64,000 bases of DNA from an uncultured Verrucomicrobiae bacterium (GCA_963706955.1 CAVPOC010000014.1:1-64000); one strand, 5' to 3'; positions 51,243 through 64,000 are shown, numbered from the stretch's first letter. The notes: generated by a model from the sequence alone, not told the origin. Program-made: numbers and translations.

Positions 51243-51665
51243 AAGCACGTTGTCCGACCGACGTGTCATCTTTTCACTAATTGGCGGAATGACCGGATCG
51301 GACAGGTACCTTTTGGGCGAACCGACATTCTGGCGCGAGATGACCTCGCCAACGACGGGGCGAGAGCTGGATGAATACTCATCTTCAGCGCAGCATGCCC
51401 GCGAGTTAGTCACAGCCGATATGATCCGGTCTCAATGCTGCGAGCAAGCCGTTGCGCTTTGGCAGCCGACTTCACCTGCCGTGCTTTTGAGTGACTTTCG
51501 CCATAGCCAATAGAGCGGTGATCATTGGCCGTGAATCGCTTTGAATCCCATCGTGCATTTTTCAGATGCGTTCTTGTCAGTCGGTCGAGAAGGAGACGAT
51601 GTAGACAGACCGAAGACTTGGCTGGACGCGCTCTGGAACGAAAGAGCCACTGACATCGATTCGCT

Positions 51666-58694: not shown

Positions 58695-59191
58695 ATGGGA
58701 ACGAAGTAGCTTTAGTTGCGGGGTCCTTTGACGAAACTAGGCGGGCGACCATCGGAGTTGTGTCGCGCAGAACAGCTCGCAGAATCAGTGAGTGTGAACT
58801 TCCGACATCTGAGACGACGCTTGCCAACGGGCGTGAAAGACCCCGGAGGGTGTTACCGCTCTATCTCTATCTTCATCGCCGTCTGATCCAACTGTGAATG
58901 GCTTCGGCAATGCCGCCATGCAAAGCCGAATGCGGGACATCTGCGCGTCGGGTTTGACTGGGGAACGGCAGGTAGTTGTCATTGGGCATAGGCTTCAACG
59001 CCTCTCATCCCGCACGTTTCTCTCTACTCTCCCGGATTCAGAGAACTCCTCTCTTATAGTGAGATCATAACAGACTAGTATTCGGAACCTCACCCAAATC
59101 CCGAAAACAATCCGAAGGACTTCATCCTATTGAGAAGGTTGTCATTGTCGTAGTCCACGGACATAGAGAGGGGTTCGAATCTCAATCGACG

Positions 59192-59684
59192 GGCGCTAGC
59201 GCGCCTCGCCAACGATAAAGCTGTTGGCTCCTGAGGTAGGATTGATTCGGCTGCGCCTCACCCCTGCGGGGCTAACCTGCCGGTCAGTCTGTCTCGCTGC
59301 GCTCGGCTCGAACCCAAGGCTTCGAATCCCAAACAATTGGCGCTAGCGCGCCTCGCCAACGATAAAGCTGTTGGCTCCTGAGGTAGGATTGATTCGGCTG
59401 CGCCTCACCCCTGCGGGGCTAACCTGCCGGTCAGTCTGTCTCGCTGCGCTCGGCTCGAACCCAAGGCTTCGAATCCCAAACAATTGGCGCTAGCGCGCCT
59501 CGCCAACGATAAAGCTGTTGGCTCCTGAGGTAGGATTGATTCGGCTGCGCCTCACCCCTGCGGGGCTAACCTGCCGGTCAGTCTGTCTCGCTGCGCTCGG
59601 CTCGAACCCAAGGCTTCGAATCCCAAACAATTGGCGCTAGCGCGCCTCGCCAACGATAAAGCTGTTGGCTCCTGAGGTAGGATT
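59192..59684 (-). repeat. tRNA-linked tandem repeat, 147-bp unit, three full copies plus a partial fourth
   Basis: Units start at 59192, 59339, 59486 and 59633; each carries the last 19 nt of tRNA-Asn (AATCCTACCTCAGGAGCCA on the minus strand). Confidence 0.95.
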
Positions 59685-59740
59685 CGAACCTACGACCAAT
59701 CGGTTAACAGCCGACCGCTCTACCACTGAGCTACTCAGGA
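59666..59740 (-). tRNA. tRNA-Asn(GTT)
   Basis: TCCTGAGTAGCTCAGTGGTAGAGCGGTCGGCTGTTAACCGATTGGTCGTAGGTTCGAATCCTACCTCAGGAGCCA: full cloverleaf with encoded CCA. Confidence 0.97.
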
Positions 59741-59756
59741 TTACGGAAGGATCAAG

Positions 59757-59791
59757 TCGGCTAGCAAAAGCGCAAACCGCTACCTTGTCAA
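59757..59791 (-). promoter_or_regulatory. Candidate tRNA-Asn promoter
   Basis: TTGACA at 59791-59786; the region is conserved upstream of both pseudo-tRNA copies (TTGACA 60203-60198, TTAACA 62746-62741); -10 box unclear. Confidence 0.5.
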
Positions 59792-60076
59792 GGAGGTGGC
59801 GCTTGTTTGGCGAGCCACGTCGCCAAGTTCCCTTTAACCCATTCTCGACCCTTTCCAGTTTTCAAGAAACGTTCTCTTCTCATTGCTTCAGCGCGGGAAC
59901 GTGCGCTTCCGAATAAGCAAGCAGCCACGGACCACGCCGCCGCTTGGTATGAAAACTCCGGCGATTATCTGGATCGTTGTGCTCCACGATTCGCCGGCGC
60001 ACGTCTTCGGTTTGCCCAAGTATGTTTCGCCCGTTGGCTCACTGATGATCGCATACGTAAAGAATCGATCGCTCAC
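59788..60076 (-). pseudogene. GIY-YIG nuclease (YhbQ/UPF0213-like), two frameshifts
   Basis: Joined frames: MSDRFFTYAIISEPTGETYxGQTEDVRRRIVEHN..HTKRRRGPWLLAYSE..SRAEAMRRERFLKTGKGREWV. Confidence 0.85.
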
Positions 60077-60080
60077 ACCC

Positions 60081-60151
60081 TCAAACCTACGATTCGCCGC
60101 GGCGAATTAACAGCCGACCGCTCTATTCGCCGCGGCGAAAGCTACTCAGGA
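60081..60151 (-). pseudogene. Pseudo-tRNA-Asn (5' part) with two palindrome substitutions
   Basis: TCCTGAGTAGCT-TTCGCCGCGGCGAA-TAGAGCGGTCGGCTGTTAA-TTCGCCGCGGCGAA-TCGTAGGTTTGA; 3' end missing. Confidence 0.9.
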
Positions 60152-60382
60152 TCCCGGAAGGTGGAGGTCGGCTAGCAACTAGCGCAAACCGCTTTGTTGT
60201 CAAGGGAACCTGCACGCGACTTGCGTCCTGCTTGAGGCAGATTCGCTACGAGCGCGGCGACTACTTACGGGAAGGTTAATACCAAGAGAGATTGCAAATT
60301 CGCAACTTCGCAAAGAGATTCGGGGGACACTCGGAGAGCAGCACCCTGAGTCGATCGGCGCGAACAGGCAGTCGCCTCTGCC

Positions 60383-61471
60383 ATGAATGCACAGACCCCC
60401 ATCGATAAATTACCAAGAGCGAGTTTAATCCTGCGCTTGGCCACGATCGGCATGGTGATCGCGGGAATTGCTGGTTTGTTCGCATACGCGGGCGGCTGGC
60501 TGACAGCGAACAGACTCACGCCAAAGTCAATGATCGACACCTTCGAAAAAGTGAATGGGCCGCATCCCGGGTTTCGGCGCAATCACGCCAAGGGCGTCTG
60601 TGTGAGCGGTTATTTCGAAAGCAATGGGCGAGGCGCTGCGCTGTCCAAAGCTGCTGTCTTTCGCGCCGGTCGTGTGCCGGTGATTGGACGCTTTGCCCTC
60701 GCGGGCGGGCAGCCCTACGCCGCGGATGTTCCACAAACGGTACGCAGCATGGCGCTGCTTTTCAAGCTCCCCGACGGCGAGGAGTGGCGCACGGGAATGA
60801 ACAACATTCCCGTCTTTCCCGTCAAAACCCCTCAGGCATTTCACGATCAGTTGTTGGCCTCGGCGCCGGACCCGGCAACTGGCAGACCGGACCCGGCGAA
60901 AATGAAAGCCTTCGTGGCCAGTTATCCGGAAACCGCAAAGGCAATGCCTTTGATTGGCAATCGTCCGATCTCGTCCGGGTTCGACAACAGCACTTACAAC
61001 AGCTTGAACGCCTTCCGTTTCATCAATACCAGCGGCGCTGTGGTCCCGGTCCGTTGGTCGATGGTGTCTGTTCAGCCGTTCGAGCCAACCAGCACGGCAG
61101 ACCCCGGAAAGACCGGCAAGAATTACCTTTTTGATGCATTGATCGCGAGCATTCACAGCCACCCGCTGCAATGGCGTTTGGTCGTCACGGTGGGCGAACC
61201 GGGGGATCCCACCGATGATGCGACGATTCCCTGGCCGCCGGATCGGCAGCAGGTTGAAGTGGGAACGTTGACGATCGACCACGTCGAGAGCGAGGAGACC
61301 AGTCCCGCGCGCGACATCAACTTCGATCCGTTGATCCTACCCGACGGCATTGCCGGTTCCGACGATCCGCTCCTTAGTGCCCGATCAGCGACCTATTCGC
61401 AGTCGTTCACGCGCCGTGAAGGCGAGCGCAAACAACCCAGCGCGGTCTCGATCCCCGAAACTGAAAAATGA
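60383..61471 (+). CDS. Catalase-related peroxidase (SrpA-like)
   Basis: GFRRNHAKG, GRFALAGG, MNNIPVF, INFDPLILPDGI..SDDPLLSARS..YS; N-terminal TM segment. Confidence 0.9.
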   Translation: MNAQTPIDKLPRASLILRLATIGMVIAGIAGLFAYAGGWLTANRLTPKSMIDTFEKVNGPHPGFRRNHAKGVCVSGYFESNGRGAALSKAAVFRAGRVPVIGRFALAGGQPYAADVPQTVRSMALLFKLPDGEEWRTGMNNIPVFPVKTPQAFHDQLLASAPDPATGRPDPAKMKAFVASYPETAKAMPLIGNRPISSGFDNSTYNSLNAFRFINTSGAVVPVRWSMVSVQPFEPTSTADPGKTGKNYLFDALIASIHSHPLQWRLVVTVGEPGDPTDDATIPWPPDRQQVEVGTLTIDHVESEETSPARDINFDPLILPDGIAGSDDPLLSARSATYSQSFTRREGERKQPSAVSIPETEK

Positions 61472-62037
61472 ATACGCCAAAACCCCGCACGCAATTCGCC
61501 CTCCAGTCGCGCATCCTCCATTGGATGATGGCCGTGCTGCTTCTGGCCATGCTGTTCATCGGAGTGTCGATGGTCGCCTCGTTGGGAGACTACCATACGC
61601 TCGTCGCGATCCATCGTCCACTGGGCATCATGATCCTGATTCTAGCGGCCATACGGCTAGCAAACCGGATATGCACGACGCTGCCCCCATTCCCGCCTAC
61701 CATGTCCCGTCTGGAACGATTCATGGCTTCGTCATCCGAGAAGTTACTTTACGCTTTGATGTTCGCCCTGCCGCTCGTGGGTTGGGGCATGTTGTCGGCG
61801 GGCCACTATCCAATCGTGATGTTCGGGTCGATTCATCTGCCGCCGATTCTTCCGGCTAATCCGATGCTCTACGCGGTCTTGCGCCAGTTGCACACGATCC
61901 TGGCGTATCTGTTGTTCGCGACATTTCTCGCCCATCTCAGCGCGGTGCTGTTCCACACGCTGATCGTTCGTGACCGGCTTCTGGAGCGCATGGCTCTGTG
62001 GCCACTCCGATCACGAAAAAACAAAAGTCAAAGTTGA
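61468..62037 (+). CDS. Cytochrome b561 family protein
   Basis: RILHWMMA, HRPLG, LPLVGW, LHTILAY..AHL..LFH; ATGA overlap with the catalase gene. Confidence 0.9.
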   Translation: MNTPKPRTQFALQSRILHWMMAVLLLAMLFIGVSMVASLGDYHTLVAIHRPLGIMILILAAIRLANRICTTLPPFPPTMSRLERFMASSSEKLLYALMFALPLVGWGMLSAGHYPIVMFGSIHLPPILPANPMLYAVLRQLHTILAYLLFATFLAHLSAVLFHTLIVRDRLLERMALWPLRSRKNKSQS

Positions 62038-62544
62038 TTGCCGAACTTCTGGTTTCCGATGCCCCGAATTGTGCCATTGTCTCTTCCACCGAATCCGGAA
62101 GAAACAAGTGCGAATACCCCGTGCAATACGCCAAGGCTTCGCTTCTTCGATCGCTTTTTGAATTAGACGATCCTCACCGCAGAAACGGCTTTCATAAATG
62201 CTTTTGAGTCGAACTCTCAATTGTCCAGCGCGACGACCAAGCGGTTGCGAGACACGTCGAGGAAATCGGGTCCGGTCGAACTCGTTGTCACCTACTGTTG
62301 CCTTGAATCCGTTTTGCTCCCCTGCAATTCGACCTTGGCATTCAGTGATATTGGTAGCCGACGATCGCCACAAACGTGCCGCACGAGAGCGAGACTGGTC
62401 GGACTCGTCAACTTGGCCGATCGAAGTTACTTAATCACACGATTTTCGGGTTTTCCTGAGCAGCCGTCCAATTTGGAAGGCCGGAACACGAATCTCCGGC
62501 AAAGAACGAACTCAGACCGCTGTGGCTGGCCGCTGCTCAGGCAA

Positions 62545-62622
62545 TGAACTTTTCGATTGCACAAGTCGCTTCGACGCAGAGTTTGCGCCGAAGGGATTCT
62601 CTGCCATGGCGTCAAATGCTCA
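62545..62622 (+). repeat. Duplicate of the corA leader and first codons
   Basis: Similar to 63281-63359 and includes ATGGCGTCAAATGCTCA. Confidence 0.85.
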
Positions 62623-62626
62623 TACC

Positions 62627-62698
62627 TTCGAACCTACGATTCGCCGCGGCGAATTAACAGCCGACCGCTCTGTTCGCCGCGGCGAAAGCTACTCAGGA
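62627..62698 (-). pseudogene. Second pseudo-tRNA-Asn (5' part) with the same two palindrome substitutions
   Basis: Palindromes at 62640-62653 and 62673-62686; ends at GGTTCGAA. Confidence 0.9.
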
Positions 62699-62888
62699 AC
62701 TTGGGATTCCGAGTCGGCTAGCAAAAGCGCAACCGCTTCTTGTTAAGGAAGCGAAGTTGCGCGTGACTCGCGTCTTCTTTTGAACAGATTCGCTACGGCC
62801 GCGCCCCACTTCTTAGGGGAATGTTAACACCGAGATAGATTGTAAATTTGCAGCAGAAGAGTAAGCGTGCGGGCGCTTCAAATCTGCA

Positions 62889-63215
62889 ATGTCCGAGTCT
62901 CTCATCGTCTACGTCTCCCTCGTGCTCTGCGGAATGGCATTGAGCTGGTTCTTGCTTTACCGGTCTATCGTGCGGCGGCTGAGTGTGCGTCATCGGAAGA
63001 AGTATTTGGCCATGCGGACGATCTCGGGAGTTCCAAAAAACAGCATCGATTGGCTGTTTTCTTTTCTGCGGTATCTTTGCTTGGGAGAACACCGTGAGCT
63101 TCGAGATTCAACGATGTCCGGTTTGTGCCTGCTGCTTAAGGGATGCACTCTCGCGATATTTCTTCTTTTCGTGTTCTTGATGTTCAGTCCGATGTTTCTG
63201 CCAGGCGGCCACTAG
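62889..63215 (+). CDS. Small two-TM membrane protein, UspB-like
   Basis: TM-RRL..RH..Y-LRYL..EHR...D....C-TM layout, 108 aa. Confidence 0.5.
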   Translation: MSESLIVYVSLVLCGMALSWFLLYRSIVRRLSVRHRKKYLAMRTISGVPKNSIDWLFSFLRYLCLGEHRELRDSTMSGLCLLLKGCTLAIFLLFVFLMFSPMFLPGGH

Positions 63216-63342
63216 ACCTATCAACTCCCCGCTAACTTCAAACAGATCCTGCGCAGCCGAGTTGGCCAATGGCCACTCAGTGAACTTTTCGATTGCATAA
63301 GCCACTTCGACGGCAGAGTTTGCCCCCAAAGGATTCTCTGCC

Positions 63343-64000
63343 ATGGCGTCAAATGCTCACAGCGCGACCGAGGAAGCACCGAGCCTAGAGGGTCGGGCGC
63401 CGGAGATTGTTTCGGTCGAGGAGAATAATGCGAGCGTTCGGAGCTTTTTCCGCTTGGTCGGCGGCCATCTGATCCCCTGCGAGCCGAACGCGGCCGAGAT
63501 CATCGCCTACACGTCGCCAACCATGGACGACGAGGCTGAATTGCAGGAGCAATACAAGATCGATTACCACACACTTCAGTCCTCTCTCGATCCGGACGAA
63601 CTCTCGCGCCTGGAGATCGAGCACGGTCATATATCCATCATTTTCAAGCGGCCGAAGAGTTTCTGTGCCGGCGACAATTTCCTGATGAAGCTGACCTCGA
63701 CCGGCGTCTTTGTTTACGAAAACTATTTGGTCATCGTGATGGCAGACGACTCGCCCATCTTCGAAGGTCGAGTTCCCTTTGGCGTGCATTCAATCCATGA
63801 TGTCATCCTGCGCCTGCTCTATCAGGCCACAATGCATTTCGAAGGACATCTCAAGGCGATCAACATGCTGGCGGACTCTCTCGAGCGGCGGATCAATACC
63901 TCACTCGAGAATAAATATCTCCTCAACATGTTCTCGCTCGAGAAGAGCCTCGTGTTTATTCTGAACTCCATCAGCTCGAACGGTTCGCTGCTGGAAAGGA
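63343..64000 (+). CDS. corA: CorA family magnesium transporter (runs off the window)
   Basis: Open frame from ATG 63343: IDYHTLQSSLDPDELSRLEIE..IIFKRP..HLKAIN..LE..NKYLLNMFSLEKSLVF. Confidence 0.8.
   Translation, partial: MASNAHSATEEAPSLEGRAPEIVSVEENNASVRSFFRLVGGHLIPCEPNAAEIIAYTSPTMDDEAELQEQYKIDYHTLQSSLDPDELSRLEIEHGHISIIFKRPKSFCAGDNFLMKLTSTGVFVYENYLVIVMADDSPIFEGRVPFGVHSIHDVILRLLYQATMHFEGHLKAINMLADSLERRINTSLENKYLLNMFSLEKSLVFILNSISSNGSLLER

Follow-up and report, generated by a model that had tools for sequence, protein, structure and literature searches.

The DNA analyzed here (the window) comprises the first 64 kb of the 98-kb contig C14 of an uncultured Verrucomicrobiae bacterium (GCA_963706955.1, CAVPOC010000014.1), whose metagenome-assembled genome (MAG) counts 4.16 Mb in 15 contigs. 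Towards the right end of the window lies a tRNA-Asn gene which is probably occupied by a cassette of about 403 bp, composed of a minimal GIY-YIG nuclease gene and a hairpin-bearing partial copy of the tRNA, and which was probably enlarged by one later segmental duplication reaching into the neighboring corA gene. This reading is carried by the anatomy of the locus and its conservation, by the variable number of units among relatives, by the linkage of the nuclease family to tRNA genes, by a compensatory change in the hairpin, and by microhomology at the point where the second unit was joined. The cassette is old in the genus, where it is present, absent or doubled depending on the species, and it is exchangeable independently of its flanks.

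Organization of the tRNA-Asn locus

The intact tRNA-Asn(GUU) gene is found on the minus strand at 59666-59740 (ARAGORN; Rfam tRNA model, 74.5 bits); it is the only tRNA detected in the window by these two tools, and the only tRNA-Asn found in the assembly. Its upstream region (59741-59796, minus strand) contains the hexamer TTGACA at 59786-59791, inside which the stop codon (TGA) of a GIY-YIG reading frame is located. The frame belongs to a nuclease pseudogene with an Slx1/UPF0213-like minimal domain (59788-60076, minus strand; partial PF01541 match, 20.2 bits), starting here with GTG AGC (60076-60071). Its leader is the first pseudo-tRNA (60071-60151, minus strand), with palindromes at 60093-60106 and 60126-60139, preceded by the promoter copy P1 (60152-60205, minus strand; TTGACA at 60198-60203). 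Read along the minus strand, the cassette has the order promoter copy, pseudo-tRNA, nuclease gene, intact promoter and intact tRNA, with a period of 392-404 bp from anchor to anchor, and the nuclease gene starts 8-15 nucleotides (nt) past the T-arm half of the pseudo-tRNA. Because an intact promoter and tRNA follow the nuclease gene, the unit keeps a working tRNA. The second pseudo-tRNA (62618-62698, minus strand) has its palindromes at 62640-62653 and 62673-62686, and it is preceded by P2 (62699-62750, minus strand), a decayed promoter copy with TTAACA at 62741-62746 and a shorter spacer.

Both pseudo-tRNAs extend from position 1 of tRNA-Asn to the T-loop, but the last 19 nt of the tRNA are missing from them, as are the D-loop and the 3′ strand of the anticodon stem, and neither ARAGORN nor the Rfam tRNA model calls them as tRNAs. 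A sequence-only reading of this region had described one tRNA-Asn and two pseudo-tRNA copies, each with a copy of the upstream region and a shared block. All of these were found, and the order of elements it had given was confirmed by tRNA calls, alignments and Pfam. However, it had placed all elements on the plus strand, whereas only the cargo genes are on that strand. The minus strand carries the tRNA with its promoter copies, as well as the GIY-YIG gene and the two pseudo-tRNAs, and the promoter copies therefore point away from the cargo genes. The term promoter is used here in a putative sense and rests on TTGACA, retained upstream of tRNA-Asn in 13 of 13 genomes; the promoter scan did not find a consensus -10 upstream of the tRNA.

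The nuclease gene of this genome reads in three frames, with frameshifts near 60016-60019 and 59905-59912. Both frameshifts are present in short-read contigs with 0 mismatches from two independent studies, and the gene is therefore truly broken here; a third study presented a variant with an extra C at 60019, where the first frameshift lies. Intact orthologues of 95-96 amino acids were found in three relatives (G018, G012 and G014; PF01541, E 1e-14) and, by alignment, in G004, G001 and the metagenome contig L061. PF01541 is the sole Pfam family of these 95-96-amino-acid open reading frames (ORFs), and the nearest solved structures are the UPF0213 proteins 1ywl and 1zg2, and SLX1. The NCBIfam model of group I intron endonucleases, TIGR01453, matched over 33 residues only, with 22.7 bits where its cut-off is 56, and a PHROGs search gave no family at E<=0.001. 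In Seg-type homing endonucleases a GIY-YIG catalytic domain is joined to a DNA-binding domain, and SegB is larger, with an extra DNA-binding part. In the present family the catalytic domain alone fits in 95 amino acids, and the additional domain of the Seg type was not found.

Distribution and exchange of the cassette

The tRNA-Asn locus was compared at 14 loci, from 13 genomes and L061; the relatives are labelled as Verrucomicrobiae/Terrimicrobiaceae MAGs. This comparison confirmed a presence/absence polymorphism of the cassette at a fixed site, bordered by conserved sequence, among close relatives. According to a search of 40 relatives, a pseudo-tRNA about 330 bp from tRNA-Asn is shared by G004, G001, G018, G012, G005, G014 and the genome studied here. 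Counted in units, six loci have none (G011, G003, G006, G013, G002 and G009), five have one (G004, G001, G018, G012 and G005), and three have two (G014, L061 and this genome). In the cassette-free loci, similarity ends directly after TTGACA. The two units of G014 are an intact cassette and one with an internally deleted nuclease gene, L061 holds two tandem cassettes 404 bp apart with diverged nuclease genes, and G004 has a fragment of the nuclease C-terminus beyond its pseudo-tRNA. The variation in unit number anticipated by the sequence-only reading was thus observed, in the range of 0-2, but no relative presented a third unit or new cargo at a corA-type junction.

In regard to exchange, L061 joins catalase, block 1 (described below), promoter copy, pseudo-tRNA and nuclease in the same way as unit 1 of this genome. 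The two are highly alike in the catalase gene (346/357), block 1 (60206-60382; 169/177) and P1 (49/53), but the nuclease matches at only 213/280. This break of identity at the pseudo-tRNA indicates that the cassette was exchanged independently of its flank. A metagenome scan with the double-palindrome core gave 0 matches, and a shorter pattern found one contig, which is L061.

At the level of the phylum, a homologue of the nuclease at E<=1e-6 was found in 101 of the 301 genomes surveyed. Among the 29 best loci of these 301 genomes, 18 have a same-strand tRNA within 260 nt, located upstream in 16 cases and representing tRNA-Asn in nine. Homologue loci from other phyla hold a full same-strand tRNA at most 115 nt upstream (5/6), and a partial tRNA copy with hairpins inserted in its loops after the gene (4/6). 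Tandem GIY-YIG arrays with units of approximately 320-410 bp, several with in-frame stops, also occur in the phylum (G233:C1:5450562-5451605, three times; G224:C1:89112-89658; G328:C1:3219122-3219770; G264:C66:92-642). Furthermore, this genome has a second small GIY-YIG gene (C3:537200-537773), about 110 nt downstream of tRNA-Gly(CCC). A hairpin, AGCGGGCAGGCCCGCT, is present in its leader, and the leader is repeated after the gene, so that the hairpin stands on both sides; a truncated second copy follows.

The hairpin of the pseudo-tRNAs

Each pseudo-tRNA carries the 14-nt palindrome TTCGCCGCGGCGAA twice, with starts at 60093 and 60126 in the first and at 62640 and 62673 in the second. One copy replaces six bases of the D-arm/D-loop, and the other takes the place of the variable loop and of the anticodon stem's 3′ strand; the D-loop palindrome is present in some genomes only. 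In a comparison of five genomes, the pseudo-tRNA core was conserved at 93% (100% among the double-palindrome copies), the nuclease gene at 71%, and the promoter regions at 58-67%. After the anticodon-loop sequence CTGTTA, this genus has ATTCGCC-GC-GGCGAAT. A genome of another family (G329) has ATTCGCC-AA-GGCGAAT after CTGTTA in three copies, and one of the same order (G038) has ATCCGCC-TCA-GGCGGAT, with one compensatory pair change. Since the stem is kept by this compensatory change and the loop varies in sequence and length, a hairpin fits these observations better than a double-stranded operator.

The state of the palindrome largely follows the state of the nuclease gene, although the counts are small and the genomes related. 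In all seven pseudo-tRNAs that stand in front of an intact or contig-truncated nuclease ORF, the palindrome is perfect and lies 15-20 nt from the start codon. It is degenerate in two pseudo-tRNAs whose nuclease is damaged or deleted (G005 and the proximal unit of G014). The exception is this genome, with a dead nuclease gene and four perfect palindromes. In the seven intact or contig-truncated copies, a hairpin was not seen 3′ of the nuclease gene. Gene conversion from the nearby tRNA could account for the identity of the tRNA-derived parts of the pseudo-tRNA, but not for the palindromes. In addition, the palindromes cut the 57-nt homology to the tRNA into runs of at most 19 nt, which could hinder loss of the cassette through recombination between direct repeats.

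Two other interpretations of the palindrome were tried and rejected. A census gave 29 sites in 11 of 41 genomes. The 16 copies outside pseudo-tRNAs (8 genomes) were considered as a possible dispersed repeat, but none of the 16 is near a tRNA or GIY gene, and they have no shared flanks and resemble sequence coding for Phe-Ala-Ala-Ala. The center of the palindrome is CCGCGG, which recalls the GIY-YIG restriction enzymes that cut this sequence (Cfr42I site); the resemblance was treated as a coincidence because no such chain is found among PDB sequence matches at E<=0.01. As a separate observation, the plus strand at 51452-51519 shows a weak match (76%, E 1e-5) to the promoter/pseudo-tRNA region, upstream of a short-chain dehydrogenase-like gene.

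The second unit and its junction in corA

Similarity between the two units, at 80%, covers 60070-60303 in the first and 62617-62851 in the second. It includes the two pseudo-tRNAs and their promoter copies, as well as the shared blocks behind them, which were delimited by pairwise alignment. Shared block 1 (60206-60310) holds the near-palindrome TGCAAATTCGCA at 60293-60304, and shared block 2 (62751-62858) the dyad TGTAAATTTGCA at 62841-62852. The second pseudo-tRNA is abutted on its left by a copy of the corA leader with codons 1-6 of the gene (62527-62622, plus strand; ATG at 62606), which ends at the junction, here called junction 2. This copy, reported already by the sequence-only reading, is 86% identical to 63263-63359, the leader and start of corA itself (63263-64000 in the window, plus strand; Pfam CorA). 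The corA gene occupies 63343-64356 on the contig and is cut by the end of the window.

Past pseudo-tRNA 2, the minus strand retains of the nuclease only its first two codons, ATG AGC, before it continues into antisense corA. A microhomology of 7 nt, GCTCACA, is present both at the nuclease start (60071-60077) and in corA codons 5-7 (63355-63361). With parental site A GATCGCTCACACCCTC and parental site B AAATGCTCACAGCGCG, junction 2 reads AAATGCTCATACCTTC, and it consists of the left side of the corA site and the right side of the nuclease site. As the join lies at a 7-nt microhomology inside coding sequence, it speaks for illegitimate and not for site-specific recombination. The second unit probably arose once, through an event that covered the segment from nuclease codon 2 to corA codon 6. 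Its sequence carries the signature of a microhomology-mediated tandem duplication, which would equally be left by re-insertion of a circle or by unequal recombination between two alleles. The earlier description of both junctions as corA joined to tRNA requires a correction: the left edges of both units share a 22-mer, but the first of them is the nuclease start, and only junction 2 joins corA. Likewise, repeated duplication of the tRNA-Asn/corA interval applies to unit 2, which ends in corA codon 6, but not to unit 1, which is the GIY-YIG cassette found genus-wide.

A relative without the cassette, G009, has the order tRNA, nuclease remnant, block 2, the gene for a 108-amino-acid protein, and corA. 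This arrangement fits a deletion corresponding to 60014-62802 between GCCC microhomologies.

RtT-like units downstream of the tRNA

Behind the tRNA, on the side away from the cassette, the minus strand contains 3.5 tandem RtT-like units at 59174-59684 (TRF: period 147, 3.5 copies, 98% matches), each with a terminator-like hairpin. A 147-bp unit is built of the trailer hairpin, a T-arm-like half (GGGTTCGA), an insert of about 65 nt, and the last 19 nt of tRNA-Asn, with which each unit terminates. The claim that the 5′ part and the promoter of the tRNA are duplicated is therefore correct, but the additional claim that the 3′ end is not duplicated fails on these units. Three of them score 42.6 bits each with the RtT model (RF00391; E 6e-6), below the gathering score of 45, and two orthologous units in G001 reach 45.5 bits. 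Their number is about five in G001, and none were found in G004, G003, G006 and G013. The T-loop (59683/59684) is the shared break point of both kinds of partial tRNA copy.

A connection between these units and the cassette is hinted at by two relatives from the phylum (L102 and L105), in which GGTTCG stands directly after the nuclease gene, followed by two hairpins and then by the last approximately 19 nt of the tRNA. This is the build of the RtT-like units, which may consequently be nuclease-less pieces of cassettes. On the other hand, the RtT model gave no match at E<=0.1 on six distant GIY loci, and a link between RtT and the 3′ pseudo-tRNA pieces of cassettes is unsupported by that test.

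The trailer of the tRNA differs among relatives. Instead of the RtT-type ACAGCTTTATCG, it is ATGTTGTAA in G004, G013, G012, G003 and G006, and G011 has a different trailer again. Tyrosine integrase genes adjoin the 3′ end of tRNA-Asn in G004 (L024:1179-2285), G011 (L031:1579-2649) and G013 (L034:8235-9335), so the tRNA-Asn is also an attachment site of islands in this genus.

Proposed mechanism

In the scenario that we favor, the displaced copy of the tRNA promoter and the pseudo-tRNA would serve as promoter and leader of the nuclease gene, and the second promoter and 5′ part supplied by the cassette would keep the tRNA functional. A minimal nuclease gene would in this way persist inside an essential tRNA gene by means of a duplicated promoter and 5′ part. 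By analogy with Ssn nucleases, the nuclease may recognize the hairpin and, by analogy with phage SegB, breaks made at or near the tRNA may promote copying of the cassette and duplications joined at microhomologies. The duplication of a host-gene segment sits exactly at the cassette. If the nuclease is shown to cut, the well-known instability of tRNA flanks would have a cause that can be tested. The locus is a well-resolved case of such a cassette, with 0-2 units within one genus, swapping of the cassette at the pseudo-tRNA, and a compensatory change in the hairpin.

All these elements could also be joined into a wider picture, which we put forward only tentatively: an active selfish element nesting in tRNA genes, with hairpin recognition, copying of the cassette, shuffling of neighboring genes, and RtT-like units as its nuclease-less pieces. 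The target of such a nuclease in single-stranded DNA would be the hairpin, with the similar anticodon or T arm of a tRNA-Asn gene still free of the cassette as a possible second target. Repair of the resulting breaks would copy the cassette, and the same breaks would cause segmental duplications joined at microhomologies and exchange of neighboring host genes, here catalase/cytochrome b561 and corA. If true, this would be a chromosomal counterpart of SegB-driven amplification, and tRNA flanks would be integrase-free hot spots of gene shuffling.

Several observations weigh against the explanation by a cassette and one later duplication, or against the mechanism proposed for it. The nuclease is dead in this genome, and its activity is putative in all members of the family. 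The palindrome is not a dispersed repeat, as only 5 copies exist in this genome, 4 of them in the pseudo-tRNAs. Of the promoter copies claimed by the sequence-only reading, the retained TTGACA stands, but the consensus scan gave 0 sigma-70-like sites against 1.8 expected. The two pseudo-tRNAs are 95% alike and their flanks 71-80%, a difference that would need gene conversion or selection. A plain duplication would predict equal cargo in both units, yet the cargo differs, and a remnant of the 108-amino-acid gene was not found in unit 1 beyond chance matches (blastn with word 7, tblastn), so later replacement or differing parental alleles must be assumed. Identity to G009 is 89% for block 2 and 64% for block 1, and the two blocks share 71% with each other. 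The position of block 1 as outgroup to block 2 and G009 means that the event is old, or that unit 1 was imported. The copies of the corA leader differ from one another about as much as from G009. Judged by these distances, either the units separated no later than this genome and G009 did, or unit 1 would come from a diverged lineage. Finally, the 41-nt stretch common to both pseudo-tRNAs together with 31 nt on each side is spanned by no public contig examined; short-read contigs break in this shared core, so that the order of the units depends on the MAG assembly.

Alternative explanations

It is unlikely that the pseudo-tRNA and promoter copies are kept as regulatory RNA genes of the host, acting as decoys or, in the case of P2, as antisense into the catalase operon, with the nuclease being incidental. 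The conservation of the pseudo-tRNA core far above its flanks, and its perfect state here despite the dead nuclease, would agree with such a function, as would a predicted fold with a 14-15 bp stem presenting the anticodon-loop sequence (-48.7 kcal/mol, z -2.6). RNA contigs were found over the catalase gene, and one metatranscriptome contig covers the pseudo-tRNA/nuclease-start junction of a relative, but these may represent carry-over of DNA. However, the pseudo-tRNA is missing in 6 of 13 same-genus loci, the hexamer of P2 is weakened and its spacer shortened, and in the phylum at large the hairpin is associated with the nuclease family and not with any host gene. The identity of the tRNA-derived parts can also be kept by gene conversion from the tRNA 400 bp away.

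The sequence-only reading had proposed a tRNA-anchored gene-capture array for stress genes, in which the hairpin-forming pseudo-tRNA would be an attC-like site for circular cassettes. This would have meant a new integrase-free cassette system, and we consider it very unlikely. Each unit does begin with a hairpin-forming pseudo-tRNA and has its own cargo, the catalase/cytochrome b561 pair is located in unrelated contexts in six relatives and so moves as an operon, junction 2 is what a circularized segment from the pseudo-tRNA to corA codon 6 would carry, and the genes just beyond the pseudo-tRNA vary by species (ADH, PutA, MBL, catalase). On the other side, there are only two units, the junction lies at a 7-nt microhomology within corA coding sequence, and homology between the units runs for 235 bp without stopping at a site. 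The repeated units of relatives normally carry the nuclease gene or nothing, with no new cargo between two pseudo-tRNAs, and the tRNA-Asn flank is equally variable in species without the cassette. The earlier statement that no integrase is in view holds for the whole 98-kb contig, on which PF00589 has 0 matches, all 7 matches in the genome being on other contigs; the Pfam scan of 64-98 kb likewise gave no recombinase, serine recombinases not having been searched separately. A dedicated gene-capture system is not supported, because there are two units only, the junction is illegitimate, a tyrosine recombinase is absent from the contig, the promoters face away from the cargo, the units of relatives contain the nuclease or nothing, and the flank is variable anyway.

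Scars of integrase-mediated islands entering and leaving tRNA-Asn could be another source of partial tRNA copies. The T-loop, in which both kinds of copies break, is a classical crossover region, integrases adjoin the tRNA in the three relatives mentioned, and the genes that neighbor the pseudo-tRNA in G018 and G013 are located here beyond about 30 kb of extra DNA, the distance from tRNA-Asn to tRNA-His being 35 kb here and 4.5-5.7 kb in these two genomes. Nevertheless, what island integration duplicates is the 3′ part of a tRNA, and not the promoter and 5′ part. The direct repeats here enclose only a 290-bp nuclease gene, the contig has no integrase, and the same unit of about 403 bp recurs in many genomes, all of which makes this origin highly improbable.

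Hardly any weight is left for an assembly artefact, by strain chimera or mis-join across the shared pseudo-tRNA, since, although a break at the 41-nt core would allow a chromosome with tRNA, nuclease, pseudo-tRNA, P2, 108-amino-acid gene and corA plus a separate circle or tandem of 2.55 kb, the units are 80-95% alike but not identical and so cannot be a collapsed or doubled repeat, their unique parts occur in three independent studies, L061 independently joins nuclease, pseudo-tRNA, block 1 and catalase, and junction 2 has to be present in some molecule under any order of the units.

The explanation by a cassette and one later duplication was also followed in public data. Sequence nearly identical to 59100-63500 occurs in 14 DNA runs from soil or rhizosphere, belonging to 6 studies (60-90% of sampled words), so the organism is widespread in soils. 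What is unique to each unit, including the join between leader copy and pseudo-tRNA, was recovered with 0-3 mismatches in contigs of three independent soil/rhizosphere studies. To the left of the 41-nt shared stretch, the contig over junction 2 extends by 29 nt. Contigs bridging the pseudo-tRNA core were not found in the public runs, and coverage dips in them (X1 at 62775-63215, X6 at 62481-62627); neither is evidence in either direction.

Cargo genes and other observations

The genes between the two units, and between the second unit and corA, are all on the plus strand. The catalase-family gene (60383-61471; PF00199, 5.8e-27) and the cytochrome b561 gene (61468-62037; PF01292, 2.9e-19) were named by the sequence-only reading, as was corA, and Pfam agrees in all three cases. 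The first two form a conserved two-gene operon with orthologous pairs in six relatives; the flanks in five of these map to scattered places in the present genome, and an 'empty site' is not definable. The operon is followed by a spacer without a recognized gene (62038-62526), in which no ORF has a Pfam match and no remnant of the 108-amino-acid gene is present. The latter gene (62889-63215) encodes a membrane protein without an assigned family, 91% identical to its orthologue in G009. It had been called UspB-like, a name not backed by any Pfam match at E<=0.1; a weak lead in that direction is given by one of the nearest Atlas clusters, in which 11% of the members have PF10625.

The near-palindrome TG[CT]AAATT[CT]GCA is found in both shared blocks, and also in G009 and L061, at about 84 and 42 nt upstream of the starts of the catalase and the 108-amino-acid gene, respectively. 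This dyad may be an operator common to both cargo operons.

Elsewhere in the genome, a DAHP synthase gene is split by a frameshift into two overlapping ORFs (L060:8087-9167, corresponding to C14 92087-93167). Similar splits are present in G013 (DAHP synthase) and G001 (PIG-L), and they may be real or may represent indel errors of long-read assembly. ARAGORN also reported a tRNA of undetermined type with a two-base 'anticodon' at C9:102403-102484.

Comparison with known systems

In the accessible main texts of the literature on GIY-YIG proteins with tRNA genes, homing, pseudo-tRNAs and YhbQ/UPF0213, supplements excluded, a tRNA-nested GIY-YIG/hairpin cassette is not described. Several known systems share some of its features. 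As in islands that target tRNA genes, a partial duplication leaves the tRNA intact, and tRNA-Asn is a hot spot, but here the promoter and the 5′ three-quarters are duplicated, and the 'element' has about 0.4 kb and no recombinase. Serial units bounded by hairpin-forming repeats, with different genes in each, recall integrons. In contrast to them, the locus has no integrase and no attC-type site at a fixed cassette end, consists of two units, has its junction inside coding sequence, and the promoters of its units face away from the cargo. The 147-bp tandem units, each ending in the last 19 nt of the tRNA, are comparable to the distal repeats of E. coli tyrT (RtT, RF00391), although they belong to another phylum and another tRNA, and they lie on the opposite side of the tRNA from the array described above.

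Among nucleases, the closest parallel to the hairpin association is Ssn, a single-domain GIY-YIG protein of 94 amino acids, whose flanking hairpin is bound as single-stranded DNA and cut just upstream (Chenal et al., Nat Commun 2025, PMC11893778). Both are single-domain GIY-YIG proteins of approximately 94-96 amino acids with a GC-rich ATTC...GAAT hairpin beside the gene, both keep the stem and vary the loop, and in both a C follows the palindrome. The present hairpin is embedded in a pseudo-tRNA, however, and a duplicated tRNA gene surrounds the nuclease gene, while the word tRNA occurs 0 times in the main text of the Ssn paper (PMC11893778). Ssn genes are flanked by SRM motifs, whereas the hairpin is seen here only 5′ of the gene; the SRM motif is dispersed genome-wide, and the present palindrome is not (PMC11893778). 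A further point against hairpin recognition of the Ssn kind is that the published SRM pattern has 26 matches in this genome but 0 in 58-64 kb (PMC11893778).

In regard to amplification, SegB was shown experimentally to drive tandem amplification of a tRNA-segB unit in phage T6, joined at microhomology (PMC13096335). SegB is a protein of phages T4/T6, a free-standing homing endonuclease in a tRNA cluster (PMC13096335), whereas the present cassette is chromosomal, includes a hairpin-bearing pseudo-tRNA, and has been retained across a genus. In both cases GIY-YIG genes stand beside tRNA genes, tRNA and nuclease form tandem units, these units are joined by microhomology of the tRNA 5′ region with the nuclease gene, and truncated nuclease copies are found inside the repeats (PMC13096335). 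The locus ties the nuclease/hairpin pairs of the Ssn type and amplification of the SegB type to tRNA loci of bacterial chromosomes.

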